From: a virus
Virus record (IMG/VR): IMGVR_UViG_3300029131_000181
Direction: 5' to 3' (one strand)
DNA: 64,000 nt
Position 1 is the stretch's first letter. Each line of letters begins with the position of its first letter. The notes under the pieces are model-generated. The model saw only the letters and a program-made list of their open reading frames with translations, was not told the DNA's origin and made no database searches. The position numbers and the translations under genes were made by a program. Positions 17,116 through 32,480 of the stretch are shown one piece after another.

Positions 17116-17283
17116 GACACATCGGCAGCTACGCATCCTGGCACCTACGGTTCCAACGGCAAAAAGCGCAGCTACGCAACAAATAAGCAAAAAGAAAAAG
17201 CCGCCCACCCGGTCAGGGGTGAACGGCAGGAAACGCTATCTATGTAAAAAAACGACTGAGTTCGTCAGAGGTCTTGTAATCTA

Positions 17284-18807
17284 TCAGGCAGCCATCTTCG
17301 CTGCGGTTTTGCCCTTCGGACCCTTCTTCCGTGCATTGGCTTCAAGCTCCTTCTTGTTGGTATCATACCAAACCTCGAACTCCTTGAAGTTGTTCAACGC
17401 CCAAATCTCAGGAGAAGCCTTGCGACCGTAAGTTTCTTCCAACAGGTGGATAACTTTGCGGCCAACTTCTTCCATGATTTCGGCATCGTATTTGCCGCCA
17501 CCGCAGTAAAACCCTTCAGGCATAATAATGTCGTATTTAGGGTCAAGAACTTCAAGCCCCGGCTCCAAAACGCGAATGCCTTTGTAGCCAGCTTTGCGTA
17601 CAGCTTCAAATTTGAAGCGGTCCTTTTCGGCAGCATCTGCGTGCGGATATTTTCCATTATACTCATAAATGAGTCTCTGGATATGGTCCACGAAGTCTAA
17701 TCCCAAAAGACTATTTTCGCCCAAGATGTTTCGAACATCAAAGAAGGGGTTGGCAATTCCGTTTTCACCGGCAAATGCCAACATGGGACGTGTGTAAAAC
17801 CACTCCGGCTTGGAAATGGCATTGATTCTTCGCATTTTGCAGTCGTAGCATCCAGTAAGACCGTTGTTCACAGAACGAACAATATTGTTAATTGCAGCTT
17901 CGAATTCTTGCCCGCAATCACGGCATTTGAAGAAGGCTTTTTTGTTGCTTTGAACAGTTACTTCTGAAGCAGAAAGCTTGTTTTTACTACTCCACATGGA
18001 GGCTGCTTTCGGACATTGCGACGCAAGGTCATTGATGCCGGGAACAACCCTCCGACCTACGCAAACTAGGCATCCAGTGTTGCCGTTTTTTACAGCACAA
18101 ACAACATCTCCAATTATGGCTTTGAACTCTTGCCCACAATCCGGGCACACAAAGAAAGCTTTTTTCCCGCTTTTAGCTGTGACTTCTGAAGCGGAAAGCT
18201 TATTTTTATTACTCCACATAGCGGCTGCTTCTGGGCACTGTGACGCAAGGTCATTGATGCCAGGGGCAACTCTTAGTCCTCTGCAAACAGGGCAACCTGT
18301 GTTTCCGTTACTTACAGAATAGACAACGTGTTCGATTTTGGCTTCAAATTCTTCCCCGCAGTCCGGGCATACGAATATCGCCTTTTTGTTGCATTTGACA
18401 GCAATTTCCGAGGCAGACTTTTTGTTTTTGTTACTCCACATAGCTGCAATTTCCGGGTATTTCGACGCAAGGTCGTTGATGCCGGGGATAATCTTTCTTC
18501 CTGCGCAAACAGAGCAACCCGTGAATCCCTTGTCTACAGAACGAACAACATTAAAGATTCTGCTTTCAAATTCCTGCCCGCAATCAGGACACACAAAAGT
18601 GAGTTTTTTATTGCTTCCAGTAGTAACTTCAAAGGCAAGTTTCTTATCTTTTTCGCTCAGCATTGCAGCTACTTTTGGGCAAGCAACAGCAAGGCAATTT
18701 TTCTTAACCACTTCATACGGCATCTCAATGCCAAGAGCCGGAATAGGAGCGCAAGAAGCGCAGTTGCAAGAGTTAGCGTGCATCATAATTTTCATGTTAG
18801 TATTCAT
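17284..18807 (-). CDS. zinc-ribbon repeat protein with C-terminal Vsr/DUF559-like domain
   Basis: Trimmed to MNTNMKIMMH (AAAGGAG RBS). Four 74-aa repeats of the form PGINDLAS..P..AAMWS.KNK.SASEV......FF.CPDCGQEF......V......GNTGC.VC. C-terminal LDFVDH..IYEYNG..H resembles the Vsr-like nuclease core. Confidence 0.75.
   Translation of the reverse strand: MNTNMKIMMHANSCNCASCAPIPALGIEMPYEVVKKNCLAVACPKVAAMLSEKDKKLAFEVTTGSNKKLTFVCPDCGQEFESRIFNVVRSVDKGFTGCSVCAGRKIIPGINDLASKYPEIAAMWSNKNKKSASEIAVKCNKKAIFVCPDCGEEFEAKIEHVVYSVSNGNTGCPVCRGLRVAPGINDLASQCPEAAAMWSNKNKLSASEVTAKSGKKAFFVCPDCGQEFKAIIGDVVCAVKNGNTGCLVCVGRRVVPGINDLASQCPKAASMWSSKNKLSASEVTVQSNKKAFFKCRDCGQEFEAAINNIVRSVNNGLTGCYDCKMRRINAISKPEWFYTRPMLAFAGENGIANPFFDVRNILGENSLLGLDFVDHIQRLIYEYNGKYPHADAAEKDRFKFEAVRKAGYKGIRVLEPGLEVLDPKYDIIMPEGFYCGGGKYDAEIMEEVGRKVIHLLEETYGRKASPEIWALNNFKEFEVWYDTNKKELEANARKKGPKGKTAAKMAA
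17790..18681 (-). repeat. 4 x 222-bp in-frame tandem repeat inside the CDS
   Basis: ACTCCACA landmark recurs at 17989, 18211 and 18433 (period 222). Limits approximate. Confidence 0.8.
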
Positions 18808-18927
18808 GATAGATTTCTCCTTTGTTATCAATAAAAATAAAAAAGCAGCCACCCTTCCCTCTTTTGAGGGCAAAAGCGACTGCTTTACGTTCAATGGGTA
18901 TTGAGTTGTTATTCATGAAGAATTGCT

Positions 18928-19113
18928 TCACTCGTCCAGCATAACCTGCAAACGGGCGTTGAATTCCTTCATGTCGGCGCTTTCCTCGGCTGCAGCAAGG
19001 ACACGCGGATAAATTTCCGGATTCATGCTCTTCAGCATGTTCAGAGTAGAAAGAAGCAGAGGGTTGGTGATAGTCATAGTAAGCATCTCCTTGTTATTCA
19101 TAGTAATGTTCAA
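18928..19113 (-). CDS. hypothetical small protein
   Basis: 61-aa ORF whose stop-proximal region is followed by the next gene. The upstream gene overlaps by 4 nt. Confidence 0.45.
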   Translation of the reverse strand: MNITMNNKEMLTMTITNPLLLSTLNMLKSMNPEIYPRVLAAAEESADMKEFNARLQVMLDE

Positions 19114-19952
19114 ACGTTGGTATTCGTGCGATGGCCTTTCAGCGTGCCCTTGTTGAACTGTGTCAAACGGGCGTGCTTCAGAACAAATCCGTCTTCGAAT
19201 TGAACGTCAACGGCGTTTGTGCTGATGATGCGAATGATGGTTGCTTTCGAGCCATCATTCATGGTCTTGGTCATAGGTCCGCTATACTCGACCTTAAAAT
19301 CGAAAGGAAGCGGCTTATGCTTGGTGCAGCAGGGACAAGAAGAACTGCCGTTATTGATGCAGTGGACAAGAGAATTCACGTGAGTGACGTATTCTTCTCC
19401 GCAATCCGGGCATACAATGACGACCTTCTTGCAGCTATTGGCACTTACTTCACGCGGGGAGAAAGCGTTTTTGCTGCTCCACATTTTTGCCACGGCAGGA
19501 GATGTGGTTGCCAAGTCATTGGTTCCGGGAACGACTTTCATGCCACGGCATACGGGGCAAGTGAAGGTTCCATTCTCGATGTCTTTGACCAAAGAGATGA
19601 TTTTTGTTGTGTACTCTGCATGACAATCAGGGCATACAACAATCACCTTTTCGGGACTGTCACAGCGAACTTCGTCGGGATGAATCGTGTTTTTAGGACT
19701 CCACATAGCTGCAATTTTGGGATACTTGGTAGCCAAATCATTGACTCCGGGAACAAGCTTTTCGCTATGGGTTTCTTCGGCTTTGAATGCCGTAGTTACC
19801 TTACGGTTTTTGACCGTTTTGAATCGGCAGACAGGGCAGGCAGTTACGCCACGCTGCTTAGCTCTAACAAGGTTTGCCTCGTAGGTTGTGTATTTGCAAC
19901 CGCAATCGGGGCAGATGGTGATGACTTTTTCGTTCATGTTAATGTTATTCAT
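19110..19952 (-). CDS. zinc-ribbon repeat protein (paralog of 17284-18807)
   Basis: Trimmed to MNNINMNEKVITICPDCG. Three CPDC..CPVC treble-clef-like units with VPG.NDLAT linkers. Weak RBS. Confidence 0.65.
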   Translation of the reverse strand: MNNINMNEKVITICPDCGCKYTTYEANLVRAKQRGVTACPVCRFKTVKNRKVTTAFKAEETHSEKLVPGVNDLATKYPKIAAMWSPKNTIHPDEVRCDSPEKVIVVCPDCHAEYTTKIISLVKDIENGTFTCPVCRGMKVVPGTNDLATTSPAVAKMWSSKNAFSPREVSANSCKKVVIVCPDCGEEYVTHVNSLVHCINNGSSSCPCCTKHKPLPFDFKVEYSGPMTKTMNDGSKATIIRIISTNAVDVQFEDGFVLKHARLTQFNKGTLKGHRTNTNV

Positions 19953-20008
19953 GATAGTTCCGGGTGCTGCTCTTGATGCAATCTCCACAGCGGGTCGGTC
20001 GCTTCTGC

Positions 20009-20044
20009 AAAACAAAAAGGACAACCTCAAAATGAGGCTGTCCT
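20009..20044 (-). terminator. leader hairpin + U-run between promoter copy 7 and gene
   Basis: Minus strand AGGACAGCC-loop-GGTTGTCCTTTTTGTTTT. Confidence 0.6.
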
Positions 20045-20100
20045 TGCAAAAGCGGAATGTTAAAAATAAATTGGTAAGTGGTATCTTTGATACAACATCT

Positions 20101-20128
20101 ATCATAGCCATCTCGCACACATTGTCAA
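20101..20128 (-). promoter_or_regulatory. motif-class promoter, copy 7
   Basis: TTGACA-ATGTGTGCGAGATGGC-TATGAT. Confidence 0.55.
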
Positions 20129-20129
20129 A

Positions 20130-20169
20130 CAAAAAAAGACCCTGCCCGCATTTTGCTGCGAGCAGGGTT
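20130..20169 (-). terminator. rho-independent terminator
   Basis: Minus strand AACCCTGCTCGCAGCAAAATGCGGGCAGGGTCTTTTTTT, after gene 20189-20509. Confidence 0.75.
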
Positions 20170-20188
20170 TGCTTTTGCACTGTTGTGC

Positions 20189-20509
20189 TTAGCCTTCAAG
20201 GTCGAAGGTGTAGCTGTCTTCTTTCATTGCAACAAGGCCCTTAAACGTCTGGCACTCGGCGTCGTCCAGGAATGCCTTGATGGTCAGGCTGGTATCCTCG
20301 TTATCCAGCCATTCGGGACGCATACGGACAACGAGGTCGTGCAGCTCTCCGACGACATAGGCCATCAGGTCCTGGTCGCCCAGGGCCTCACCAATTGCTT
20401 CATCATCGTATTCGACAGGGAAGCTGATGGAAGCGGCGAGGCCGTCGAGTTCGTCAAAATCTTTGGGACGGATTACAGTGGCTTCAAGTTTCAGAATGCT
20501 AGTGCTCAT
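20189..20509 (-). CDS. hypothetical acidic protein
   Basis: 106 aa, RBS AAAAGGAG. Confidence 0.65.
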   Translation of the reverse strand: MSTSILKLEATVIRPKDFDELDGLAASISFPVEYDDEAIGEALGDQDLMAYVVGELHDLVVRMRPEWLDNEDTSLTIKAFLDDAECQTFKGLVAMKEDSYTFDLEG

Positions 20510-20557
20510 GGTAAAATCTCCTTTTTGTGTGTTGTGGTTTGTCTTTCAACATTTTTA

Positions 20558-20585
20558 ATTGTACGCAATTCGCACGCTGTAGCAA
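20558..20585 (-). promoter_or_regulatory. motif-class promoter, copy 8
   Basis: TTGCTA-CAGCGTGCGAATTGCG-TACAAT, about 45 nt upstream of ATG 20509. Confidence 0.65.
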
Positions 20586-20639
20586 TACAAAATTTCTTAT
20601 ATTGGGTTCGCAATTTCTTGTATTTGCCTTGGGATTCTG

Positions 20640-20720
20640 CACAAATCAAGACCTATGAAAGGGTGAAATCCTACACAAATCAAGACCTTAACACACCCCA
20701 AAAACAACACAAATCAAGGA
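20640..20720. repeat. three direct repeats CACAAATCAAG(A/G)(C/A) spaced 34 bp
   Basis: Copies start at 20640, 20674 and 20708 (the third is shorter). Located just upstream of promoter copy 8. Confidence 0.7.
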
Positions 20721-20776
20721 TTTTGCTTCACCAATTCTTGCCGCCGTGTACACCGCACACCAGGCAAAACGCCTCA

Positions 20777-21070
20777 TCAATGCTCCTGCAGTTCATCGAC
20801 CTGAATCCGCGTGGGCCCATGAGCATGTTCCCGCACAAAATATAGGTTTCGCTCATGCCCCGGCCGCTGATACTTATGGTGTTCCCAAAGACATGAACGG
20901 TTGAGCCATCTCGACACATGGCAAACATTATATACGTCTCGCTTTCTGTTTTTGTTTCTTATCATTCTAGGCAAATCGCATAATGAGTCAATTTCAGACA
21001 TTCTGGAATAAGCATCCATTAGGCAGCGTTCCCTTTTGAGGTTGTTGGCTACATAATAACCACGTGGCAT
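20777..21070 (-). CDS. hypothetical protein (doubtful)
   Basis: The ATG directly follows the stop of the upstream gene. Atypical R/H/C-rich composition. Overlaps an alternative 66-aa ORF (20728-20928). Confidence 0.3.
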   Translation of the reverse strand: MPRGYYVANNLKRERCLMDAYSRMSEIDSLCDLPRMIRNKNRKRDVYNVCHVSRWLNRSCLWEHHKYQRPGHERNLYFVREHAHGPTRIQVDELQEH

Positions 21071-21886
21071 TTATTCTTCCGCACTAATCATCAGCCCATG
21101 AATGTAGTTTTTTGAATGGCTTTTCCCACTTTTTAACGCTTTTACATCAATAATAGCAGCTCTATAAATAGGCTGTTTCAACCTTCTAAAGCCATCGGAC
21201 AATTTGTCGTAATATTTATATGGTGCGTACCAAATCATGTAATCTGCATCACTATTTTTTATGATGCTTTGAAATTTTATATCATGTGCATAGAAGTGGA
21301 GCTGTGACGGAGAGACATAATTGATTTGACCTTTTTCAGGGATAATATAAGTTTGACCGGCGAAAAGTTGCGTATATGCAGTGGATTCGTCATAAACAAA
21401 AAATATAGTTTTGAAGTTTTCATGGTTTTGTTGGTAAAGTGGAATTTTGTTATTGTGACTCGAAACAACTCGCTCAAAGGAATCAAAATACCACTTGAAT
21501 TGATGGTCCTCCATTGTAGGCAAGTCCGTAACAGCGTTTATTACGACATCTTGTGTTTCGCTTGTAATGACGCCAGCATTTTTGAATTTTCTATACACTT
21601 GACTTTCTTTTTCTGCTTTTGGATTATATAATTTGCCTTTTTTCCCTTTCCTCGTATTATCCTCTATCTTCATAACATCCATCATAAGGCCATATTTATC
21701 CGAGTAAAAATCCGGTGGTGGTGCATTATGTGCAGAGGTATCTATCCATTCATTCCAGAAGTTTTTGCTTTGAATGATGGAACGCAGTTCCGCTTCTTCT
21801 TTTGTATTACATAATAAGCAAATTTCTTTTGTTGGCTCTGTTTGAAATTTACGAATTAACTGTTTTTCTGATTCAATCATAACCAT
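21071..21886 (-). CDS. hypothetical protein, AT-rich cargo gene
   Basis: Trimmed to MVMIESEKQ (AGAGGG RBS). Visibly AT-richer than its neighbours. PPPDFYSDKYGLMMDVMKIED could be a nuclease-type motif but is unproven. Confidence 0.65.
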   Translation of the reverse strand: MVMIESEKQLIRKFQTEPTKEICLLCNTKEEAELRSIIQSKNFWNEWIDTSAHNAPPPDFYSDKYGLMMDVMKIEDNTRKGKKGKLYNPKAEKESQVYRKFKNAGVITSETQDVVINAVTDLPTMEDHQFKWYFDSFERVVSSHNNKIPLYQQNHENFKTIFFVYDESTAYTQLFAGQTYIIPEKGQINYVSPSQLHFYAHDIKFQSIIKNSDADYMIWYAPYKYYDKLSDGFRRLKQPIYRAAIIDVKALKSGKSHSKNYIHGLMISAEE

Positions 21887-21904
21887 CGCCCTCTTTCTGC
21901 GAAA

Positions 21905-22018
21905 CAAAAAGCTTCCCACCGCAGTCAGTGTGATACTGATTACGATGGAGGATTAAACCTTTTGTGATAGTCTTATTATACCACGCTTCGTGAATTACTC
22001 GAATTACTCAAGGCCAAT
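21905..22018 (-). repeat. promoter + leader-hairpin cassette, copy A
   Basis: ~80% identical to 23285-23393. Contains TGGTATAAT (-10 at 21975-21980) and hairpin 21912-21951. Confidence 0.7.
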
Positions 22019-22052
22019 CTTAGTACACCCCTCCTTCAGGTGGGGTAGTTGA

Positions 22053-22080
22053 CTTGTATGAGGTTCGCATAATCGGTTAA
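22053..22080 (-). promoter_or_regulatory. motif-class promoter, copy 9 (degenerate)
   Basis: TTAACC-GATTATGCGAACCTCA-TACAAG. Confidence 0.3.
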
Positions 22081-22130
22081 CCGTCATACCTCATGAATCC
22101 GACCAGACCGGACTTTAAATTTCTTTGTAA

Positions 22131-22165
22131 ACAAAAAATAGTCCGCACAGAACTGAATCTGTACG
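22131..22165 (-). terminator. rho-independent terminator
   Basis: Minus strand CCGTACAGATTCAGTTCTGTGCGGACTATTTTTTG, after gene 22174-22638. Confidence 0.65.
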
Positions 22166-22173
22166 GGCTCGTA

Positions 22174-22638
22174 TTAGTCATGAGGATGTTCGTGGCATGG
22201 TTCAGGCGGCATACCATGCGGGTCAGGCTCTTGGAAGTGACCATGGTCCCCGATGATTTCCGAAGTACGGATACCGTTCGCTTTCCGGCAAGCCTCAATG
22301 GTTTTAGAAAGCACTTCCTTGACATCGCGCGGGTTCTTGATACGACGGATATCGATTTCCGGTGTCATAGCATCCGTGGAGCAGAGATGGATGCTGCCAA
22401 CACGGCACAGACGCTCATAGAAGTTCTGCTTGAATGCGATGTCCCGGACGCGGTACAGCTGAATCTCGTCCTCGCGCAAATTGAAGCAGCCACGCTGGAT
22501 GATGAGTTTGGTCTCGGTCAGGGTGTACTTCGTAAAGGATAGCGGCAGAGAAAAAATGGTGTGGCGTTTTCGGTCGGTCCAGAGAATTTTCTCCTTGTCC
22601 AAGTCGATGCCGAACTCGCCGTTTTTGAGGGTGGACAT
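22174..22638 (-). CDS. bacterial PH-domain (bPH_2/DUF304-like) protein
   Basis: 154 aa. The pattern KYTLTETKLIIQRGCFNLREDEIQLYRVRDIAFKQNFYERLCRVGSIHL resembles YdbS/YdbT-type PH domains. His/Pro-rich tail. Confidence 0.5.
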   Translation of the reverse strand: MSTLKNGEFGIDLDKEKILWTDRKRHTIFSLPLSFTKYTLTETKLIIQRGCFNLREDEIQLYRVRDIAFKQNFYERLCRVGSIHLCSTDAMTPEIDIRRIKNPRDVKEVLSKTIEACRKANGIRTSEIIGDHGHFQEPDPHGMPPEPCHEHPHD

Positions 22639-22730
22639 GGTATGGTTCCTTTCGTTATGTGATTGGTTTTGGTTATTGGTATTCTGCTTGATGGTGTGTG
22701 GAATGATGTTATAGTCTTTATATTGAGTAT

Positions 22731-22759
22731 ATTATACCATGCTGTGATGATTTTAGCAA
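22731..22759 (-). promoter_or_regulatory. consensus extended -10 promoter
   Basis: Minus strand TTGCTA-N17-TATAAT with TGG immediately upstream of the -10. Confidence 0.65.
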
Positions 22760-22815
22760 TTCCATTTAAAGTGTTAGTACGCAAACAAAGCCCGGTTCAC
22801 TATTGGTCTCCAATA

Positions 22816-23265
22816 TCAACCATTTTCTAGGTTCCCTGTGCTCTTGTTTGTTGCGGAAAGGACGTATTCTTTGCCGTATAGTGTTACCCAAAAATTGTTA
22901 CAACTACCATTAAAATAGCCACGATTTTTCAAGTCTTCGAAACGTAGGCGCGCTTTTCTTGTCGCTTCTTTTTGGTTTGCGTTGTTTTCTCGGTCTTTGT
23001 ATCCATTTCCCGTCATAAAAAGCATTCGCAATTCAGAGTTGTTATCAATCACTATAGGAACACTATCTTGACCATTTGCGAGTTCTAGTGCCTTTTTCAA
23101 TATTGTAATAGATTCCTTGCCATCAATCTTGGAAAGCCATTCTTCAGCGTCCTTAGTAGTCACTGTCACTTTTTCATTTCTCATAACAGCTTTTTTTCGC
23201 TTATTATGGTAATAAGTATAAATGTGCTGTGCCACAATTTTCTTGTCGTCATTTTCGCTTTTCAT
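22816..23265 (-). CDS. hypothetical protein, AT-rich cargo gene
   Basis: 149 aa, RBS AAGGAGG. Confidence 0.65.
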   Translation of the reverse strand: MKSENDDKKIVAQHIYTYYHNKRKKAVMRNEKVTVTTKDAEEWLSKIDGKESITILKKALELANGQDSVPIVIDNNSELRMLFMTGNGYKDRENNANQKEATRKARLRFEDLKNRGYFNGSCNNFWVTLYGKEYVLSATNKSTGNLENG

Positions 23266-23284
23266 ACAGAATCCTCCTTAAAAT

Positions 23285-23393
23285 AAACAGCCTCCCACCG
23301 CAGTCAGCATACTACTGATTACGATGGGAGGCTCAAAACCTTTTGTGATGGTTCTATTATATCACGCCTTGCGAAAAACTCAAGGCAAATTTC
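23285..23393 (-). repeat. promoter + leader-hairpin cassette, copy B
   Basis: TTGAGT-N16-TATAAT with a TGA extension (-10 at 23356-23361). An 18-bp imperfect hairpin at 23291-23331 is followed by CTGTTTATTTT and the RBS. Confidence 0.7.
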
Positions 23394-23399
23394 AATAAC

Positions 23400-23789
23400 T
23401 CAGTCAATATCTAAGTTACCAAAATCATCTGCAGGAGGCTCGTTGTACCAGTCATACTCCTCTGCTTTTTCATCATCCAAATCGTCATCAAAGAAGTCGT
23501 CATCAGTGACGGGAATGTCTTCCCTGATGTCCTGCTGTGGCACGAACGTGGCAGCGGTAGCGGTATAGTCGCCGTCTTCGAGCACAATCTGCACGGTTGC
23601 GATATCCCCTACTTTGGGGACAGAACCGTTCTGAACGGATGCATCGGGGTTACGCTGGACATCCACCTCGACATCGAGCGCCGGGATGAAGACCACGATG
23701 GTCTTGTGGGTGACGGTAGTCACGGTTCCGGAGTAAGCGGCTTCGTTTTCGTGAATGTCCTGGCGGACGGTTTTCTTAGTATTAAACAT
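23400..23789 (-). CDS. hypothetical protein with beta-rich N-terminal half and highly acidic tail
   Basis: 129 aa, RBS GAGG. Tail DDDFFDDDLDDEKAEEYDWYNEPPADDFGNLDID. A possible OB-fold/SSB-like organisation is speculative. Confidence 0.65.
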   Translation of the reverse strand: MFNTKKTVRQDIHENEAAYSGTVTTVTHKTIVVFIPALDVEVDVQRNPDASVQNGSVPKVGDIATVQIVLEDGDYTATAATFVPQQDIREDIPVTDDDFFDDDLDDEKAEEYDWYNEPPADDFGNLDID

Positions 23790-23799
23790 TAACTTCTAC

Positions 23800-24200
23800 C
23801 TCGCTGATTTTGTATGCTTCATCGTGGACCTCCCCACCTAAACCTTTCGGCTATAGTTGGGGCTTCTCCGTGGGTTGTAACCCCACGGTAAGTCTCTGCG
23901 TAACCCGAAGGTAGAGATACGACCCGAACTTAGCTAACAATGCCTGACGGCATTGGTCGCCACATAGGGGTTAGTCTCCCGCAAAGTTCTCGCAACACAG
24001 TGTAATCCCAACAGATGGGCCCGGGCTGTTGAGTCGCCACGGGGGGCTCAACAGTGAATGCAACTGTTTAAGGGAGTACAATGTGCATTGGGTTCTACGC
24101 TCAATGTCAGGAACTTTAGCCTTACACTGAGACCATGCCTTCTTTGACATGGGTTTTGTTACCTCGCGGATGAAATACCGGGCACCAATGTTATAATTGG
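23800..24200 (-). ncRNA. candidate large structured RNA or structured 5' leader (class unknown)
   Basis: ~400 nt with no ORF of 60 aa or more in any frame. Nested hairpins at 23832-23862, 23868-23888, 23893-23917, 23939-23954, 24026-24054 and 24132-24153. UUCG and GAAA tetraloops appear only in the minus-strand reading. Confidence 0.45.
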
Positions 24201-24353
24201 GAGCTAGAAAACCCGCAGGCTTTCCTGTGGTATGAACGGCTCCTGTTTTTGAATTTTTTTGTAAAATAACGACCTAGCAGCTTGGCCAACGGTATAGAAT
24301 GCATGTATAATATATGTATGAAATGATACTACATAACTGTCGGAGGAATCTTT

Positions 24354-24758
24354 ATGGCATTGCCCGGTATGCTTGAGCTTACGAAGGAACAAACGCAACG
24401 GCTTGTGAATATCATCGAGGATAAGCAAGGTTGTATTTGCAACGTATCTAATAGTATGCGCACAGTCTGGATTACTTCTGATGACGGTGAAAATGAACTT
24501 AGGGTTTCATTTCTTTGTAATTTTGCTTTGGTTATTTCACGTGTTAGGTTTTCTATAAAGCGTCATGGTACAATGTCTCTGTTGCTCGATGCGTTGAAAG
24601 AAATTTGCGAAGACTATGGTGTGCATCGTATCGTTATGCAATCTGTACTAACTCGTGAAATGGAAGTCTTTTGTCATAAAGCTGGGTTTCGAGCAGACCC
24701 GAACGCAACAATGGAGGTTGATGGGATTCTTACAGGGGATTATAAATTGGATTTTTGA
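24354..24758 (+). CDS. small GNAT-like acetyltransferase (tentative)
   Basis: 134 aa with GGAGG RBS 8 nt upstream and TATAAT at 24306-24311. KRHGTMSLLLDALKEICEDYGVHRIVMQS resembles GNAT motif A. Confidence 0.5.
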   Translation: MALPGMLELTKEQTQRLVNIIEDKQGCICNVSNSMRTVWITSDDGENELRVSFLCNFALVISRVRFSIKRHGTMSLLLDALKEICEDYGVHRIVMQSVLTREMEVFCHKAGFRADPNATMEVDGILTGDYKLDF

Positions 24759-24844
24759 AAAAATACGACATTTGTATTCCCATCTGTGCCGGTGAACATA
24801 CCGAACATGAAATAGCGATATTTTTTCATGATATGCTCCCACCA

Positions 24845-25981
24845 TTACATATCCGACTTCGCCGCATTACACTTCTTGCACAGCATCTGCAGATTGTCAT
24901 CAGTGGTATGTCCGCCCTTGCTCCAAGGAATGATGTGGTCGCCTTCCATATCCTCAAAGGCGTACTCGGTGTTGATGCCATTTGCAACGCACAAGGGGCA
25001 CTTGTGACCCTGCCGCTCATAGGCGCGGAGTTTCTGCGACTCAGTAAATGCACGAAGGGACAGATGCTTTTCGTCGCGCCAAGTGCGGTCAGAGAGGATG
25101 AACGGGACAATGCCTGCCTTCTTGGTCACGTCATCATCCAGCACGAGTTTCTTGATATCAGCGTCCAGAGCGTTGCTATTATACTGCTTTGCATGGTACT
25201 TGTTGTAGAGTAGTCCCCATGCCTGTGTATCCGTAATTCCCTTCCGCTTGGTCGGGAACAACATTTTAGCCCAGTTGATTACAGACTGGAAGTAAAGCCA
25301 GAGGTCATTGGCGTCCTCGTCATGCTGGTGAATCGCCATGTACATCTGCCCGGATTCCAGACCATCACGGTCAGCAATCCACGCCAGTGCCTTTTCCAGC
25401 AACTCCTGCCGAATCGGGTTACCTTTCAGGTATCCGTCAGCCATCTTCGCAGCAACACAGTTGCGTTTCGAGAAGTAGTTCTTGGCATCGGCCAGCCACG
25501 GTCCTGTATAAGTAGCGTTCAGCAGCTCCTGCGGAGTCAACACCTCACCGGCGATGTTGATGCGCTTGAACCATTCCAGTTTCTCGGCTTCGGAGCCTTC
25601 ACAGATATTCACGGTCAACTCGTAGTCCAGAATTTTCTGTTTTTCCTCATCTGTCAAGTTCTGGAAGAACTTGTCGTTGCCGTTGATTTTGACGGGGAAA
25701 TCCTTGTTGACATACTGTGCAATGGAAATTGTCCGCTGTTGTCCATCGAGAACCTCGTAGGTATCTGGACCGGTCTTGGACCAGTACATGAGGTTCAACG
25801 GGAATCCGTTCATTACCGAATCAATGACGGCTGCACGCTGTTTATCGGAGAAGCAAAAATTTCTTTGGTAGCTTGGCCTAATCGTGAGGCGATTGTTGTA
25901 CCCATATACGCCACTGTCTCCGTCATCCGAATAGTTCTCTACAAGGTCGGATACCTTGATTTTGGTTTCTGTGATTTTCAT
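24845..25981 (-). CDS. DUF262 (GmrSD N-terminal-like) + HNH endonuclease fusion
   Basis: IRPSYQRNF..EVLDGQQRTISI is the DUF262 hallmark. C-terminal HKCPLC..GDHIIPWSKGGHTTDDNLQMLCKKCNAAK is an HNH motif. ATGA overlap with the upstream gene. Confidence 0.85.
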   Translation of the reverse strand: MKITETKIKVSDLVENYSDDGDSGVYGYNNRLTIRPSYQRNFCFSDKQRAAVIDSVMNGFPLNLMYWSKTGPDTYEVLDGQQRTISIAQYVNKDFPVKINGNDKFFQNLTDEEKQKILDYELTVNICEGSEAEKLEWFKRINIAGEVLTPQELLNATYTGPWLADAKNYFSKRNCVAAKMADGYLKGNPIRQELLEKALAWIADRDGLESGQMYMAIHQHDEDANDLWLYFQSVINWAKMLFPTKRKGITDTQAWGLLYNKYHAKQYNSNALDADIKKLVLDDDVTKKAGIVPFILSDRTWRDEKHLSLRAFTESQKLRAYERQGHKCPLCVANGINTEYAFEDMEGDHIIPWSKGGHTTDDNLQMLCKKCNAAKSDM

Positions 25982-26862
25982 AACAATTTCCTTTCTCTGC
26001 CCACAATGTTAATATCGTCAGCACTTTTTATAATTGCTTTTATTATATTCTGCGTCAACTCATATTTAGAAATTACATGCTTTTTGGCAGATGCATAAGA
26101 AGCGGCATTCAGACGCATCACATCCTTTTCTTTCGCATTGCGAATCAATCTATTCTCCTTTTGCAACGAAGAGTTGCTGCCGCATGATGTAACGCAGTAA
26201 ATTTTTGGCGACAATATTGTGATAACCATATGATTTGATAAACTATATTCTGTGCCTGTGTTATTCAAACAGCCTGTACCCAGCACAAGCCCTATATCCG
26301 GAAGTAAAATGGCGCTATTGTTTGCTTTATAGATAACGGTTCCTGAACTGTAATATCCAATTTTTACTTTATAGTAGTTCCACTCATTATCAGATAACTT
26401 TGGATGGTTCCCCGTCTGTATAAATTTCATGAAATTGCAAAATGCTTCTTCTGTATCGAACAGTTTTTTTATTTCGTCTATATACGATGGTAGCCTGAAC
26501 AGCATACGCAAGGCATACTCTCCAAGCCAATGCGCAGATTCTTCGGATATTCTATTTTCCGAATTCAAATAAGTTGTTTTATCAATTTCATTAAGAATTT
26601 CGTTCAACTTTTTCGCATCAGAATTCTCAATATCATTGCTCAGGAGTCCTTTTTCAATCTTCCCACGATAGCATTCGTTCCATTTTTTGAGCTCTGGATA
26701 TTCATATAAATTGTTTTCCGCTGCAATACCTTTTACATTTGCCCCTACATGTATAATTTTTCCAGTTTCCTTGTTATATACAAAAAAATTTCCGTCTTTT
26801 CCAGCGAATTTTTTCAGTCGGTATTTTGGCAAATAATGTTGATTTTCATTTTGTACCTTCAT
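25978..26862 (-). CDS. DUF4238-like protein
   Basis: Trimmed to MKVQNENQHYLPKYRLKKFA (AAAGGAGG RBS). The N-terminal HYLPK..LK.F signature is recalled from DUF4238. AT-rich. Confidence 0.6.
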   Translation of the reverse strand: MKVQNENQHYLPKYRLKKFAGKDGNFFVYNKETGKIIHVGANVKGIAAENNLYEYPELKKWNECYRGKIEKGLLSNDIENSDAKKLNEILNEIDKTTYLNSENRISEESAHWLGEYALRMLFRLPSYIDEIKKLFDTEEAFCNFMKFIQTGNHPKLSDNEWNYYKVKIGYYSSGTVIYKANNSAILLPDIGLVLGTGCLNNTGTEYSLSNHMVITILSPKIYCVTSCGSNSSLQKENRLIRNAKEKDVMRLNAASYASAKKHVISKYELTQNIIKAIIKSADDINIVGRERKLL

Positions 26863-27910
26863 CGCCTTGCTTCCTCCTTTTTCTGATAAAAATTCTCTGA
26901 TAAACTGCAGAAAGCTGCACGCCATCAGGGCTTACCGAAAAGTCGCTCCTTCCTCTTTTAACAACTTTTGGTGACATCTTATCTCTTAATGCACCAGAGC
27001 CGGAGATTGTTACGCCATCCGCCTTGAAGAACTTAAAGCCAAGGCTTGTATAATCTTTATCGGCTCTGCAAGGCGTATCATCGAACATGGAACCACCAAC
27101 AATCTCAAACTGCTCCGGATTATACTTATCCAAAAAAGTGATAGGCACGCCCATAACGCCTTCATAGTCCACCGGAATATTCGCAACCCTATCCACATTG
27201 ATGGCCATGTAGTTATCATAGCGGGGGTAGCGCTCTTCCACGTCCGGCAGAGGGTTTCCGTCATCGTCATAGTACCGCTGCCAGAGAATCAGTTTCTCGT
27301 GGCGCTTCTGGATGTCGAGGTTAGTAAACCATCTTGTTAGACCGTTGATTTTCTTTGTTATTCCATTGGGGGTATCAAACTCGGATGGTGAGCTATAACC
27401 AATCCACACTTTGTTTTCTTTCAGAAGTGGAAAAAACTCTTTGTATGTAATGGCGTTCTTATTCCCGATAATCAGGAACTTTTTGCCGTGCTGCATCAGT
27501 GTGCCAACATACTCACGGAATAAGCTGAATGGCGGATTGGTCACCACGATATCACTTTCATCCAGCAAGTCAAGGCATTCCTTGCTCCGGAAATCGCCGT
27601 TGCCTTCCAGCAGGGTTTTTACACCGACTTCCACATCATTATCATCTCCGCCCTCGTACTCCATCTTGTAGGTTGGTTCGGTGTGGTCATAGTGCGTAGA
27701 AATCAGCTTCTTTAAGCCAAGTTCTGCAAAGTTCAGGTGAAAATACCGCCAGAAAGCGGACCATGTCGGGTCGTCACAGTTGCAGAATACAACCTTGCCT
27801 GCGAAATGCTTCTTGTAGTGCCGCAATTCCTCTGCGACATCCTCGATTCTGGTGTAGAACTCATCATTCTTCGCGTCCTTCGCCTTATGAAGGTTATCGT
27901 TCTTTGCCAT
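26846..27910 (-). CDS. N6-adenine DNA methyltransferase (EcoRI-methylase-like family)
   Basis: Trimmed to MAKNDNLHKAKDAKNDEFYTR..VVFCNCDDP..LGLKKLI. Catalytic VVTNPPFS. Confidence 0.85.
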   Translation of the reverse strand: MAKNDNLHKAKDAKNDEFYTRIEDVAEELRHYKKHFAGKVVFCNCDDPTWSAFWRYFHLNFAELGLKKLISTHYDHTEPTYKMEYEGGDDNDVEVGVKTLLEGNGDFRSKECLDLLDESDIVVTNPPFSLFREYVGTLMQHGKKFLIIGNKNAITYKEFFPLLKENKVWIGYSSPSEFDTPNGITKKINGLTRWFTNLDIQKRHEKLILWQRYYDDDGNPLPDVEERYPRYDNYMAINVDRVANIPVDYEGVMGVPITFLDKYNPEQFEIVGGSMFDDTPCRADKDYTSLGFKFFKADGVTISGSGALRDKMSPKVVKRGRSDFSVSPDGVQLSAVYQRIFIRKRRKQGDEGTK

Positions 27911-27923
27911 GTCTATATCTCCC

Positions 27924-27959
27924 AATAAAAAATCCAGCACCGAATTACTCAGCACTGGA
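27924..27959 (-). terminator. hairpin + U-run directly before the methyltransferase RBS
   Basis: Minus strand TCCAGTGC-loop-GCTGGATTTTTTATTGGGAG. Overlaps the stop of the upstream gene. Confidence 0.5.
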
Positions 27960-29813
27960 TGTATTTTCCGTATTACAATGACCGCATGATGTTTTCTTGT
28001 TTTCTACAAGACTTTGGGTTATCGCAAAGCATTCGTTTCCGCAATCACATTGACATTTCCATCGAGCATGACCGTTTTGGCTTCCTGCTCTCTCAATGAC
28101 CTTTAGCTTACCAAAGTGCATATTAGCTAAATCGTAAGTTCTTCCTTTTTTGACGAACTTATCGCGTGATGGATTTGCTTTCAAAAAGGCATCTGCTTCC
28201 TCTTCTGTCATGCTTTCGTATTCATTGGCAAATAACCAATGATATCCTCCGGCAACTGTACGTAGCTTGTTGCAGCAGTTCAAGATAGGCGAACCGCCGC
28301 TAATCCCGTATTTAAGAGAAGCCTCTTTTGCTGTAGAAAATCTCTCTTTTGTTTCAACGCAAATCACACTCTTGAAGTGTTTTTGTTTATAGCATTCAGG
28401 GCAGTTATGCCCGTATACTCTATCGGCTATTATCATCTTGTAGGAATGACCGTTTTTGCATTTCCACCAGCATTTTTCTGCAGACCCGGATGAGAAATAT
28501 TCGGGCTTCAAATTCTTGTTTTTTTCGTAATCCCATTCAGCAACAATTTCAGGATGTTCTGTAGCAAGGTTGTTCTTTTCGTTCCGTCTTCTTTTGCCTG
28601 TTGTACAAACAGGACATGTTGCGTTTTCTTTTGCTCTGCCATTGATGGGTGCTTCCCATTTATGCCCGCACTTAGAGCAAATCCAATGAACCATTTCTGA
28701 GCTAGATGATGACACCATCATCGGGTCAATGCCTACATTCAGTTCGTAGTCCCATTCTTTCAGGAGTTCCGGATGCCGTCCGCCCATACTTCGTTCAGCT
28801 TTGTAATCTTTGTATTGACGATAGATGTCTTTTGAATCCTTTTGTGTATCAATGTTAGGTTCAGAAACGCCAAGCATCTCTAAGCATTGGCGAATTGCTG
28901 CGTCGAGCGTTGCGTGCCCTCTATTGTTTTCTCTGATGATATTCTCGCTATTACGAATTTCCTGAAGCCCATGCTCGCGAATACGAATTATCCGAATTCC
29001 ATTCTGCTTGCATTTTTCGGACTTTTCTTCGTCATTTTTCACTCTTTTCTCATCAGAATGGTATCGAACACCATCGTATTCTACTGCAGTGCGAATGGAG
29101 GGGATGTAAATGTCCAGCTCTTTTCCAATAACTTTCTTGTTTCCAATAACAGCCTCTGAAAAATACTTTTTTGCATAATACGCTACTGCTTGTTCTTGGA
29201 ACGAGGTCTGTCCTTTATCGATAGTGCTGCATATCGGGCAACTCTTGATACGCTGGATGTAATGATATACGCTTGCCTGCCATTCCGTGCCACAAGCAGA
29301 GCATTTCCACCATACAACAATATTGCTTCCTTGTGTCAGCATACTGACATCTACGTCCTTATTTTTTGCAAAGTCATAGTCTTGCATAGCTTCTGCATTA
29401 TCTACAAGCATTTTCGAAGCTTCGGTAATGTGTTTGCAACAACCGCAAGACTTCACTTTTCCCCGCAGCAAAGAAGAGCGATAAGCAACAAATTCTTTTC
29501 CGCAGCTACACATACAGTTATAACGAATGTTTCTATGCCCCGTGCTTCCAATCGCATCTTCTGCCAAAGAAATAACTTTGATACCGTTGTGTTCTTCGCC
29601 AACCAAATCCTGGTATGTACGTTTACGGTCTTTACCTCGGCAGTCTTTACACTTTAACCCTTTCAAGAGCGCGTCGATACCAATTATCATTGTGTTTCCG
29701 CAGCAGTTACATTTCACCAAATAGGTATCTGCTTTTGAATTAGAGCCGGGGATAGTTTCGAAAACTGTTAAATCTCCGTATGTTTTGCCTGTTCTATTTA
29801 TTTTCGCCGCCAT
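27945..29813 (-). CDS. mosaic zinc-ribbon / Vsr-like endonuclease / NUMOD-like HTH protein (homing-endonuclease-like)
   Basis: 622 aa. CxxC ribbons throughout. KELDIYIPSIRTAVEYDGVRYH is a Vsr/DUF559-type core. HPELLKEWDY..WICSKCGHKW is a DUF4379-like ribbon. FSTAKEASLKYGISGGSPILNCC..GGYHW is a NUMOD/IENR-like HTH. Confidence 0.75.
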   Translation of the reverse strand: MAAKINRTGKTYGDLTVFETIPGSNSKADTYLVKCNCCGNTMIIGIDALLKGLKCKDCRGKDRKRTYQDLVGEEHNGIKVISLAEDAIGSTGHRNIRYNCMCSCGKEFVAYRSSLLRGKVKSCGCCKHITEASKMLVDNAEAMQDYDFAKNKDVDVSMLTQGSNIVVWWKCSACGTEWQASVYHYIQRIKSCPICSTIDKGQTSFQEQAVAYYAKKYFSEAVIGNKKVIGKELDIYIPSIRTAVEYDGVRYHSDEKRVKNDEEKSEKCKQNGIRIIRIREHGLQEIRNSENIIRENNRGHATLDAAIRQCLEMLGVSEPNIDTQKDSKDIYRQYKDYKAERSMGGRHPELLKEWDYELNVGIDPMMVSSSSSEMVHWICSKCGHKWEAPINGRAKENATCPVCTTGKRRRNEKNNLATEHPEIVAEWDYEKNKNLKPEYFSSGSAEKCWWKCKNGHSYKMIIADRVYGHNCPECYKQKHFKSVICVETKERFSTAKEASLKYGISGGSPILNCCNKLRTVAGGYHWLFANEYESMTEEEADAFLKANPSRDKFVKKGRTYDLANMHFGKLKVIERAGSQNGHARWKCQCDCGNECFAITQSLVENKKTSCGHCNTENTSSAE

Positions 29814-29832
29814 ATTGAATTTCCCTCTTTAA

Positions 29833-29868
29833 TAAAAAATCCTATGCAGAATCTCTCTGCATAGGATG
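29833..29868 (-). terminator. hairpin + U-run directly before RBS of gene 29813
   Basis: Minus strand ATCCTATGCAGAGAGATTCTGCATAGGATTTTTTATTAAAGAGGG. Confidence 0.65.
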
Positions 29869-30111
29869 CCTTTTTACTTATTTGAATAAGGCTGTTTATT
29901 TCTTCCGTCTGAATCTATTATGTCACGGGCTGGTCCCCACAAAAAAATGAGCGTTAAATGTGCGGAAACGCACAAAAAACGCACGCACACATTTTTTGAA
30001 TGATGCGTGCGTTTATGATAGCTTTTATTTAATGAAATGAGAGAATATATAGTGGCACTTCAGAGTAGGGCTTTCTGCTTTCCCCTGTACCCTGTCGTTG
30101 ATGGATGCTTT

Positions 30112-30246
30112 TCATTTGCGCCCGCACTTGGTGCAGACCCAGTAAACAGCATTTGTGCCGGAAGCTGTTACCTGCATCGGGTCGATGCGGGTGTTGAGCT
30201 TACGGTTCCAGTTGTCGCGCAGTTCCGGATGAAATTTAGAAAACAC
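30112..30246 (-). pseudogene. orphan single zinc-ribbon repeat fragment
   Basis: Read by eye: ..FSKFHPELRDNWNRKLNTRIDPMQVTASGTNAVYWVCTKCGRK*. Matches the HPEL..W..N...DP......S...V.W.C.KCG unit of the 622-aa protein. No ATG or RBS. Confidence 0.55.
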
Positions 30247-32462: not shown

Positions 32463-32480
32463 TGAAAGGGGGGCTTCGCA

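Follow-up and report, generated by a model that had tools for sequence, protein, structure and literature searches.

Our best explanation for two genes, A and C, of a phage-like element from the human gut is that their products are probably homing-type endonucleases, free-standing and belonging to the Vsr-like (EDxHD, I-Bth0305I-like) branch of the PD-(D/E)xK superfamily. In this explanation, DNA cleavage would be the task of the Vsr-like domain, whose Mg2+-dependent active site would comprise D371/E382/N384/H389/D396 in A and D234/E245/D247/H252/D261 in C, and strings of DUF4379 zinc fingers would keep the enzyme on a long DNA target. Three Cys modules and one NUMOD-like segment may add to DNA holding in C. 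DNA is likely contacted by the short inter-knuckle helix, on its variable face. A travels with a second finger gene, B, and a small ORF as an intergenic cassette that is present or absent at the same site. Its finger array behaves as a coding minisatellite in which in-register recombination between 222-bp units adds or removes whole units, and such gain and loss probably alters the bound site in length or sequence. We infer homing by A and C, as well as DNA binding by the fingers, cleavage, the target site, and any role for B. The first-pass annotation had described an architecture of homing or selfish nucleases, and this description agrees with the phage homing endonucleases reached by PHROG matches, tblastn, structure search, and a 2025 report (PMC12350094).

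Locus and Finger Units

The carrier of A and C is an element of roughly 260 kb that is filed as viral by IMG/VR, and the window analyzed here is a stretch of 64 kb in which no intron families were detected. An ORF check bore out the earlier coordinates of A, B, C, and a fragment at 30112-30246, all on the minus strand, and independent gene calls on other assemblies repeated the lengths of 507, 280, and 622 aa for the three proteins. The features are collected in Table 1.

Table 1. Features of the locus (positions in the 64-kb window)
Feature	Position	Strand	Description
Cassette (B, small ORF, A), 2.9 kb	17189..20125	-	Presence/absence polymorphism in sister contigs
Intrinsic-terminator-like hairpin	17200..17227	-	Downstream edge of cassette
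Gene A, 507 aa	17284..18807	-	N-terminal CxCxxC cluster, four DUF4379 units, C-terminal Vsr-like nuclease domain
A nuclease domain, residues 333-507	17287..17811	-	Profile homology to DUF559/I-Bth0305I
A array, four 74-aa DUF4379 units	17818..18705	-	Exact 74-aa spacing
Unit A4	17818-18039	-	DUF4379 unit of A
Unit A3	18040-18261	-	DUF4379 unit of A, residues 183-256
Unit A2	18262-18483	-	DUF4379 unit of A
Unit A1	18484-18705	-	DUF4379 unit of A
Small ORF between B and A	18928..19077	-	49 aa in other gene calls; 61 aa with a TTG start at 19113
Gene B, 280 aa	19110..19952	-	Three DUF4379 fingers, without nuclease
B C-terminal tail, 64 aa	19113-19304	-	Without family match
Unit B3	19305-19526	-	DUF4379
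Unit B2	19527-19748	-	DUF4379
Unit B1	19818-19952	-	DUF4379, N-terminally truncated
Hairpin and T-run, B leader	20017..20045	-	Terminator-like; upstream of B
Sigma-70-like promoter, TTGACA-16-TATGAT, 11/12	20101..20128	-	Consensus scan; upstream edge of cassette
Gene C, 622 aa	27945..29813	-	Multi-module nuclease
C Cys modules (G.L.V...C.C.CG...CG.C), three	29637-29792, 29436-29606, 27975-28151	-
C DUF4379 units, three	29214-29396, 28590-28778, 28380-28574	-
C Vsr-like (EDxHD-type) nuclease domain, ~residues 203-320	28854..29207	-
C NUMOD-like (I-HmuI-type HTH) segment, residues ~480-533	28215..28376	-	Via homolog P0193 only
Orphan, one decayed DUF4379 unit	~30055..30246	-	Pseudogene remnant between terminator-like hairpins

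The ribbon unit that the first-pass annotation had recognized in all three genes and in the fragment is, by HMM, Pfam DUF4379 (PF14311), a treble-clef zinc finger with a gathering cut-off of 24.5 bits. A matches the Pfam HMM with 129.2 bits (E 6.4e-38) in four stretches, B with 51.2 bits (E 1.5e-13), C with 158.4 bits (E 4.7e-47) in three stretches, and the 44-aa fragment with 27.2 bits (E 4.5e-6) over profile positions 3-35 of 56, for unit counts of four, three, three, and one, respectively. Nine complete units carry two CxxC knuckles about 21 residues apart after a conserved Trp motif, a Cys pattern from which zinc binding is predicted. Exceptions to the pattern are A1, which lacks the Trp, B1, which lacks the N-terminal part, and the fragment, which has lost one Cys as well as the Trp after its first knuckle (now TGA).

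That fragment was also recovered unaided, as an orphan repeat, in a six-frame scan of the 64 kb with a unit HMM from which it was absent (E 4.9e-9); the scan found no further unit copies in the 64 kb (next best match E 0.59). The orphan is a whole decayed unit with TGA at 30112-30114 in place of the conserved Trp and a degraded second zinc knuckle. It reads HPELRDNW...YWVCTKCGRK*KASINDRVQGKAESPTLKC, where unit 2 of C, its closest relative at 65% nucleotide identity over 165 nt, reads HPELLKEW...HWICSKCGHKWEAPINGRAKENATCPVC. The same TGA is found in two further contigs (L019 and L022). A recoded TGA was considered and rejected, as this codon ends 9 of the 23 confident genes and recoding is of no help to the ORF map. 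The stretch from 30055 to 30246 would then be a dead unit, kin of unit 2 of C.

The Nuclease Domains

By profile comparison, the C-terminal domain of A is homologous to the Vsr-like/DUF559 branch. Its profile matched I-Bth0305I (3r3p) with E 1.4e-5 and DUF559 (3hrl) with E 0.007, and hhalign against the nuclease domain of C returned 97.6% with E 3.8e-12. The alignment to 3r3p spans E-x-N-G-x-x-x-H...D..K, and the E-x-N-G-x-x-x-H pattern of A is that of I-Bth0305I, EVNGVYW[H]; A has Asn where the DUF559 relatives have Asp. The putative active site of A consists of D371, E382, N384, H389, D396, and K399, and no motif residue varies among 27 alleles. An exhaustive HMMER search retrieved only 46 relatives of this domain among 1.84e9 representatives, and the distant relatives P0230, P0234, and P0235 score 28.9, 33.1, and 29.8 bits against DUF559 (cut-off 20.6). 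The AlphaFold model of the nuclease part of A is poor (pLDDT 28-60).

For C, the predicted structure of the core shows a Vsr-like fold, that of Vsr, I-Bth0305I, and DUF559, with a putative active site of D234, E245, D247, H252, D261, and K264. In a viral structure library, the core model resembles a treble-clef protein of Listeria phage vB_Liva_VAfA18 (Foldseek E 2.7e-16) as well as many entries labeled homing endonuclease, and C also matches PHROG 559, 374, 681, and 3339 ("HNH/homing endonuclease"). A has no direct match to the Pfam nuclease families DUF559 (PF04480) and MTES_1575 (PF18741), and C reaches 20.3 bits for MTES_1575 (cut-off 38.2) and 18.3 bits for DUF2726 (cut-off 24.7). Because these scores lie below the curated cut-offs, we describe A and C as divergent relatives, not members, of DUF559 and MTES_1575. 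The Vsr/DUF559-like core proposed earlier for two of the proteins is upheld, for A through the profiles of 3r3p and of the C domain and for C through the fold, and the lack of a nuclease fold that had been named as grounds for abandoning the proposal is not what was found.

The same residues bear on the idea that the finger proteins act chiefly as regulators or scaffolds that bind nucleic acids, their nuclease domains being inactive, with B as the clearest case and DUF4379 binding RNA as in mitoribosomes. The Asn of A in place of the Asp of DUF559 relatives would suit such a role, as would B, which has no nuclease and yet lies beside A in 9/9 loci. The sole solved DUF4379 domains belong to ribosomal proteins and assembly factors, namely, the trypanosomatid mitoribosomal proteins mS66 and mt-SAF33 (PDB 6SGA, 7AOR, 6HIV), which are ribosome-associated, eukaryotic, and free of a nuclease domain, unlike A and C. 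However, the motif residues of A are all invariant across its alleles, its Asn is that of the active I-Bth0305I, and C retains the full D/E/D/H/D/K set. We consider a mainly regulatory or scaffolding role very unlikely; it may apply to B alone.

The Finger Array of Gene A

The first CxxC of each unit in A falls at residues 73, 147, 221, and 295, an exact spacing of 74 aa (222 bp). Tandem Repeats Finder reports a period of 222 with 2.1 copies and 77% matches at 17897-18369, and a separate repeat search found three copies of 222 nt in register, with identities of 76% and 69%. The period of the tandem repeat proposed earlier therefore stands, and its register moves to 17818-18705 from the 17790-18681 given before. 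Pairwise identity among the four units, which had been called nearly identical, is only 53-70% for protein and 60-73% for DNA. Since the units are this divergent, they are old, and the recent unit expansion suggested for A does not hold for this allele; fresh duplications occur in other alleles. The sole recent event seen in the lineage of this allele is the precise absence of unit A3 from a sister allele, L111, which otherwise matches A with 100% identity.

Among 120 homologs the repeat number, whose invariance the first-pass annotation had offered as a reason to reject its reading, ranges from three to seven units: three in 60 (two proteins of three-unit length gave only two regex matches), four in 30, five in 22, six in 7, and seven in 1. 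Of 337 spacings between units, 325 measure 74 aa. Neighboring units share 93-99% identity in P0005, P0053, P0004, and P0067, and strings of unit types form series such as EAA/EAAA/EAAAA and BCA/BCCA/BCAAA. At the level of allele comparison, these data demonstrate unit gain and loss in A-type arrays. The hypervariable unit positions (49, 51, 52, 55, 58, and 61) map to the end of strand 45-49, helix 50-58, and the loop that follows, in a part of the model with pLDDT 83-92. At the variable helix codons pN/pS is 0.6 versus 0.19 elsewhere, a value below 1 at sites that were picked for their variability.

An extension of the homing explanation, which we put forward tentatively and regard as doubtful, is that the 74-aa units form a modular DNA-reading array whose units are added, deleted, and swapped to retarget the nuclease. 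In such an array, the hypervariable face of the inter-knuckle helix would bring each unit into contact with a set stretch of bases, and B might be a nuclease-free array guiding, regulating, or protecting against A.

The Cassette of Genes A and B

B is kept beside A in 9/9 loci, and the tail of B, for which no Pfam match was found, lies directly upstream of the nuclease domain of A in 9/9 related loci. The small ORF is 100% conserved in L008 and L016. Four contigs of the same ~260-kb element (L014, L015, L017, and L018) join window position 20126 straight to 17188 and lack the cassette. The junctions lie in terminator T-runs (TTTTTTGTTTG / ... TTATTTGTTG /, with slashes at the junctions), and the -35 hexamer of the promoter-like site spans the insertion junction. 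That site is a consensus match only; promoter-like sites in the region are no more numerous than expected from shuffling. The leader hairpin might act as an attenuator. Compared with L015, the left flank is 99.8% identical and the right flank 88.8%, falling to 76-81% in the 200 nt beside the cassette on the right.

The A-B cassette, free-standing and present or absent at a fixed site, behaves as a mobile unit is expected to. Its carriers among the 17 long contigs represented are only the L016 group (3), and in relatives the B-A pair appears in at least three different downstream contexts. Distant relatives also have B-A near the p106/p135 genes; therefore, the presence of the cassette may be ancestral, and the polymorphism could stem from deletion instead of invasion.

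Gene C and Its Neighborhood

The NUMOD-like HTH modules first ascribed to C found little backing. A Pfam search of residues 476-550 gave no match even with the threshold relaxed to E 10. BLASTP (E 5e-7) pairs one segment, residues 471-533, with residues 260-330 of homolog P0193, where the match to I-HmuI_NUMOD-like is just below threshold (25.4 bits, cut-off 27) and that to NUMOD1 has E 0.004. The collection has the exact C protein indexed in 780 blocks, whose contigs measure 260-267 kb. Presence/absence polymorphism of C was not observed, as C is in every contig read with the exact methylase that follows it.

This methylase, an EcoRI-like adenine methyltransferase, raises the question of whether C is its restriction partner in a Type II restriction-modification pair. 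The two genes share a strand, with 34 nt from the end of C to the methylase start downstream at 27910, and every near-identical contig that carries the exact methylase has them side by side. Against a pair, 3.5 kb of other DNA separates them in L020 and L021, where C is 91% identical, C has eight DNA-binding or nuclease modules characteristic of phage homing enzymes, and the search that found its homologs in Listeria and Sporosarcina phages made no reference to a methylase. Orphan methylases are common in phages. We consider such a pair very unlikely.

The surroundings of C are also relevant to a proposal that A and/or C are competition or defense nucleases that cut rival phages, plasmids, or host DNA, with genes that would not be copied into the cut site and, for A, a fast-changing finger array that would track shifting targets. 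C lies in an island of defense or anti-defense-type genes (the EcoRI-like methylase, DUF4238, and GmrSD_N+HNH), with an AcrVA2-like gene about 10 kb away by synteny. C is fixed, with the identical sequence in hundreds of samples, and is therefore unlike an invading selfish gene, and arrays whose variation lies in unit number and on a single face of the helix suit an arms race. However, the A-B cassette is present or absent at one intergenic site with unequally diverged flanks, homing enzymes are the nearest characterized relatives in fold and motif, and the phage homologs are annotated as homing endonucleases. Defense and homing are compatible roles. On this evidence competition or defense strikes us as rather improbable, and we retain homing as the preferred explanation.

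Comparison with Known Systems

DUF4379-type arrays fused to an EDxHD/Vsr-like nuclease were recognized in 2025 and are without biochemical characterization in the literature; none was found in the cited literature for the phage and giant-virus DUF4379 nucleases either. The locus offers a natural series of alleles one finger unit apart, freshly duplicated units, and sister genomes with and without the cassette, so that modular DNA reading by fingers and retargeting by unit gain or loss become testable. If both are false, this is an ordinary selfish nuclease family. If they are true, the locus would represent a zinc-finger-nuclease-like system of natural origin whose code can be read. Programmable nucleases could then be built on this family as a new scaffold, and it would contribute to explaining the mosaic boundaries of large gut phage genomes. 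Like the C2H2 arrays of PRDM9 and TALE repeats, the array of A is built of fixed-length head-to-tail units, changes unit number by in-register recombination, and varies at few positions of one helix. The analogy is functional only. The fold differs: the array of A is a treble clef/zinc ribbon with a 74-aa unit, in which the reading of a fixed number of base pairs per unit is hypothetical.

Among Vsr-like nucleases, Hef is a free-standing intergenic phage gene that is present or absent among related genomes. The A cassette is alike in its free-standing intergenic presence or absence, a likeness by description only. To our knowledge, Hef has no zinc-finger array. Hef of T4-related phages has been named as a member of the EDxHD family (PMC3239194). 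I-Bth0305I (PDB 3R3P) comes from a recA group I intron and has two N-terminal NUMOD2 HTH motifs; its N208 has been equated with H64 of Vsr and its H213 with H69 (PMC3239194). The roles assigned above to the putative catalytic residues of A and C (Asp for Mg2+, Glu, the variable x position, His, and a second Asp) follow that paper. A shares the catalytic pattern, with Asn at the position of Vsr H64, and the fusion of a modular DNA-binding region to a nuclease in a phage setting. In contrast to I-Bth0305I, A and C are free-standing and use DUF4379 fingers (four and three), and C adds other Cys modules.

Fusions of DUF4379 to nucleases are found in other viruses as well. Proteins annotated as putative endonuclease in Listeria (A511/P100-like), Sporosarcina, and Campylobacter phages have one or more DUF4379 units fused to an ELDIYIP..EYDG..H nuclease, and tblastn of C residues 105-319 against them gives 31-39% identity; unlike A and C, they are mostly short, two-domain proteins. 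The giant viruses Lausannevirus and Insectomime have four DUF4379 domains with a restriction endonuclease domain (PMC5513546). The closest description is that of phage intron homing endonucleases with three to five CapR/DUF4379/DUF723-like domains and a C-terminal EDxHD/Vsr-like domain, which a report (NAR 2025, PMC12350094) presents as a large outgroup of the EDxHD/Vsr homing endonucleases. They share with A an array of finger-like domains (~60 aa each) ahead of a Vsr-like nuclease of ~100 aa; they reside inside group I/II introns of virion RNA polymerase genes, whereas the A-B cassette is intergenic, and the accessible text makes no mention of a 74-aa register, a 3-7 copy polymorphism, or a companion such as B. 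Since the architecture was described in 2025, A and C join a known kind of enzyme, with an unusually dynamic finger array.

Finger repeats and nuclease cores

The combination of zinc fingers with a Vsr-like core would make two proteins of this locus, A and C, selfish or homing-type nucleases, and in proposing that architecture the first-pass annotation was right in substance. A and C share their repeat unit with a third ORF, B, and with an orphan fragment that holds a single decayed unit. The ORF map places all four ORFs on the minus strand at the coordinates first given, and the lengths of A, B and C recur in gene calls on independent public assemblies. An assembly artefact was ruled out, as identical alleles were seen again in independent assemblies.

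Positions of the repeat-bearing ORFs, the cassette and related features (window coordinates unless another contig or residues are named)
Feature	Position	Strand	Description
A	17284-18807	-	507 aa
B	19110-19952	-	280 aa
C	27945-29813	-	622 aa
Orphan ORF	30112-30246	-	ORF as named in the first-pass annotation
Orphan remnant	~30055-30246	-	between terminator-like hairpins, just upstream of C
A-B cassette	17189-20125	-	B, a 49/61-aa ORF and A; discrete relative to sister contigs
Empty site, sister contig L015	19600-19800		...GGGCTTTTTTGTTTG/CGTAGCTGCATCC..., cassette-free junction (slash)
Cys-rich modules of C	residues 8-59, 70-126, 555-613		three copies of G.L.V...(Y/W).C.C.CG...L..G...SCG.C

The repeat family that had been described as common to the four ORFs is DUF4379, a "probable treble clef zinc finger" in Pfam, and the HMM search proposed at that time places every one of them above its cut-off of 24.5 bits: A with 129.2 bits (E 6.4e-38, four stretches), B with 51.2 bits (E 1.5e-13, two stretches), C with 158.4 bits (E 4.7e-47, three stretches), and the orphan with 27.2 bits (E 4.5e-6, one stretch, profile positions 3-35 of 56). 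Three units in B, the first without its N-terminal part, are recognized by an HMM trained on the units themselves. In a six-frame scan of the 64 kb, the unit HMM recovered the orphan at E 4.9e-9 with the orphan left out of the model and found no further DUF4379 units beyond A, B, C and the orphan. The repeat-protein observation is real and far beyond chance. Pfam gave no family match for the C-terminal tail of B or for the small ORF of the cassette. The units of A, with their first CxxC at residues 73, 147, 221 and 295, repeat exactly every 74 aa (222 bp), a period that Tandem Repeats Finder and a separate repeat search also detected. These four units had been called nearly identical, which they are not: they share 53-70% identity in protein and 60-73% in DNA, and in the window allele they are old copies.

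A Vsr/DUF559-like core in two members, A and C, was also part of the original description, and profile, fold-model and motif evidence now bears it out. Matches of C to MTES_1575 (E 5.7e-4) and DUF2726 (E 2.1e-3) fall below the Pfam cut-offs. An AlphaFold model of residues 140-345 of C, covering one finger and the putative nuclease (mean pLDDT 82.1, pTM 0.70), has a Listeria phage treble-clef protein as its best match in predicted viral structures (E 2.7e-16), followed by many "homing endonuclease" entries. The C-terminal 175 residues of A have no Pfam match, and in the AlphaFold model of the last finger and nuclease domain of A the finger is confident and the nuclease part poor (pLDDT 28-60), so sequence profiles were used for this domain. 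Phmmer with the domain against PDB sequences returned nothing useful, and an exhaustive HMMER search of 1.84 billion representatives found only 46 relatives. Distant relatives of the domain reach or exceed the Pfam DUF559 cut-off, and several of them carry DUF4379 fingers (seven in one). With a profile that combined the domain of A with distant DUF559-like bridging sequences (the bridges were required), the best PDB sequence was I-Bth0305I, the prototype EDxHD/Vsr-like homing endonuclease (E 1.4e-5), and the second was a DUF559 structure (E 0.007). The domains of A and C align with each other, profile to profile, at 97.6% probability (E 3.8e-12, 107 columns).

The motif of A reads LDFVD...E-Y-N-G-x-x-x-H...D-R-F-K. 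Asn208 of I-Bth0305I has been equated with Vsr His64, and His213 with Vsr His69 (PMC3239194); A has the Asn-to-His spacing of I-Bth0305I, and in C and the DUF559 relatives the Asn position is occupied by Asp. All 27 alleles of A keep the motif residues unchanged, which argues that the enzyme is active. By curated Pfam thresholds, A and C are divergent relatives of DUF559 and not members. The NUMOD-like HTH modules ascribed to C in the first-pass annotation survive in part: there is no direct NUMOD HMM match in C, but residues 471-533 align (E 5e-7) to the C-terminus of a homolog, P0193, and that segment of P0193 reaches 25.4 bits against the I-HmuI_NUMOD-like profile, whose cut-off is 27, and matches NUMOD1 at E 0.004, indirect evidence that C may hold one NUMOD-like segment. 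The last Cys-rich module of C is matched by PHROG 374 "HNH endonuclease."

Unit gain and loss

Repeat copy number, when compared among relatives, varies from three to seven units. The comparison used the 120 best homologs of A, which are 60-98% identical to it and all carry its C-terminal domain. Their lengths fall into classes 74 aa apart, with three units in 60 homologs, four in 30, five in 22, six in 7 and seven in 1 (two proteins of three-unit length gave only two regex matches each), and consecutive units lie exactly 74 aa apart in 325 of 337 cases. The related contig L111 encodes a version of A that lacks precisely unit 3 (residues 183-256) and otherwise matches A at 100% identity, and the B protein of L111 is identical to that of the window. 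Neighbouring units are 93-99% identical in homologs P0005, P0053, P0004 and P0067, which indicates fresh duplications. With unit types defined as clusters at 85% identity, alleles form series such as EAA/EAAA/EAAAA, BCA/BCCA/BCAAA and FDDA/FDDDHA; first-unit types are confined to the start of the array, and those types whose number varies are found internally as well. The missing unit of L111, the near-identical neighbours and the unit-type series together show that array changes are recent and repeated. The idea of an expanding family thus stands at the population level, but the reason first given for it, near-identity within A, does not.

Across 158 distinct internal units, positions 49, 51, 52, 55, 58 and 61 are the most variable, reaching 3.4 bits and 15 residue types. 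The confident part of the model (pLDDT 83-92) puts them between the two zinc knuckles, where strand 45-49 ends, along helix 50-58 and in the following loop. A crude pN/pS of 0.6 at the variable codons against 0.19 elsewhere, obtained at sites picked for their variability and from 26 non-independent pairs, is not above 1 and does not establish positive selection on the variable helix. A diversity-generating retroelement was considered for this variability, and no reverse-transcriptase domain was found among the subset of window ORFs scanned with Pfam. In a further, less probable reading, the units would constitute a modular, evolvable DNA-reading array.

The orphan unit

Read through its TGA, the orphan is a complete unit, HPELRDNW...YWVCTKCGRK*KASINDRVQGKAESPTLKC. 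The TGA stands at the place of a conserved Trp in unit 2 of C (CGHKWEAPING...ATCPVC), to which the orphan is closest (65% nucleotide identity over 165 nt), and the second knuckle is decayed. Stop-codon recoding was rejected as the source of the TGA, which is an ordinary stop at the end of 9 of 23 confident genes; the degraded second knuckle also speaks against it. Because the same TGA occurs in related contigs, TGA is an ordinary stop, and reading it as sense brings no meaningful gain to a gene map with 85% ORF coverage under the standard code, the orphan is most readily taken as the dead remnant of one unit. TAG ends none of the 23 confident genes across the window (14 TAA, 9 TGA), and ORFs read with TAG as sense are not merged into obviously better genes, so there is no sign of recoding.

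An 11-bp tandem repeat (GGCAAAACAGT, 3.5 copies) at 30333-30371, in the divergent intergenic region between the orphan and an HTH gene, could be an operator or iteron-like site. A strain-specific 2-kb IS200/IS605 insertion (31948-33958, with a Y1 transposase at 32043-32462 and a TnpB-like gene at 32481-33812), common to contigs L100 and L102, truncates the HTH gene to 466 aa, against 603-628 aa in L014-L018.

The A-B cassette

The cassette is absent in four sister contigs (L014, L015, L017 and L018), where window position 20126 is joined directly to 17188. It is present in L016 and others; among the 17 long contigs represented it is confined to the L016 group (3). Both junctions lie inside the T-runs of two terminators. 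A near-consensus promoter-like site (11/12) spans the upstream junction, a consensus match in a region whose promoter-like count is not above shuffled expectation, and the cassette has its own leader hairpin and terminator-like hairpin (consensus matches). Its left flank is 99.8% identical to L015 over 11.8 kb, and its right flank is 76-81% identical in the nearest 200 nt and ~87-98% across the next kilobase; farther right, the element is mosaic between strains. The C-terminal tail of B lies immediately upstream of the nuclease domain of A in 9 of 9 related loci, and the B-A pair has at least three downstream contexts (p135, a GH16 gene and a Y-family polymerase gene). No Rfam group I or II intron family was found within the window. 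A homing endonuclease cassette that is free-standing would be expected to show this pattern. Some strains could equally have arrived at it by deletion, and since distant relatives also carry B-A near the p106 and p135 genes, gain and loss of the cassette are indistinguishable.

A second, solo TnpB (OrfB_IS605 and Cas12f1-like TNB, 14728-15837) lies in window segment 14579-15908, an insertion relative to L014, and adjoins the cassette in several other contigs. Right of the cassette, the place taken in the window by a 179-aa ORF, TnpB and a UvrD-like helicase is occupied in some strains by RlaP and type I-C Cas genes (Cas5d, Csd1; L105 7814-8900), which marks this side as a mosaic hot spot. Judging from these genes, the element can encode CRISPR-Cas.

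The surrounding element

C is without presence/absence polymorphism: in all contigs compared it occurs together with the exact EcoRI-like methylase. The two could be read as a restriction-modification pair, a reading weakened by the 3.5 kb between their genes in L020 and L021. Directly downstream of C (24845-27910) lies a defence- or counter-defence-type cluster of an EcoRI-like adenine methylase (E 3.9e-109), DUF4238 and GmrSD_N+HNH.

In a public assembly collection, 780 blocks contain the exact C protein, on human-gut contigs of 260-267 kb. IMG/VR lists related contigs, 100-389 kb long, as viral, and the "jumbo phage" label rests on that listing, as no virion genes were seen within the window. 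GenBank phages and PLSDB plasmids contain no near-identical DNA, and one genome per GTDB species yielded no relatives of A, so the element was not seen as a prophage there.

Elsewhere in the window, a 295-aa ORF (40017-40904) carries a precomputed AcrVA2-like Pfam label by synteny with L014 and had no Pfam match at E 0.001 in a direct scan. An RRXRR+HNH protein (53107-54504) and a 1098-aa T5orf172+ResIII protein (57112-60408) are of nuclease or helicase type, the latter sharing 66% identity with a protein from a human-faecal "Bacteriophage sp." record. At 43594-43663 (minus strand), at the 5′ end of or inside a 564-aa VWA-domain ORF region, is a full-length match to the HDV-like self-cleaving ribozyme RF02682 (HDV-F-prausnitzii; Rfam, 60.4 bits, gathering score 44, E 1.2e-8), which may hint at a Faecalibacterium-related host.

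Comparison with known systems

Zinc-finger proteins with a Vsr-like nuclease are a kind already known. HEGs with a finger array and nuclease have been described as an outgroup of the EDxHD/Vsr family, large but unrecognised, for which databases give thousands of matches, and their repeated domains are proposed as auxiliary DNA-binding modules (PMC12350094). DUF4379-plus-endonuclease proteins are likewise annotated in Listeria, Sporosarcina and Campylobacter phages, and in giant viruses too (PMC5513546). Solved DUF4379 domains occur only in trypanosomatid mitoribosomal proteins. I-Bth0305I is intron-encoded and carries NUMOD2 motifs (PMC3239194), whereas the genes of the window have zinc fingers instead. 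To this known kind the locus contributes members that are free-standing and reside in a large gut element. It also contributes an array of strict periodicity in which gains and losses of single units are documented, a helix face that varies and, in B, a conserved partner gene with no nuclease.
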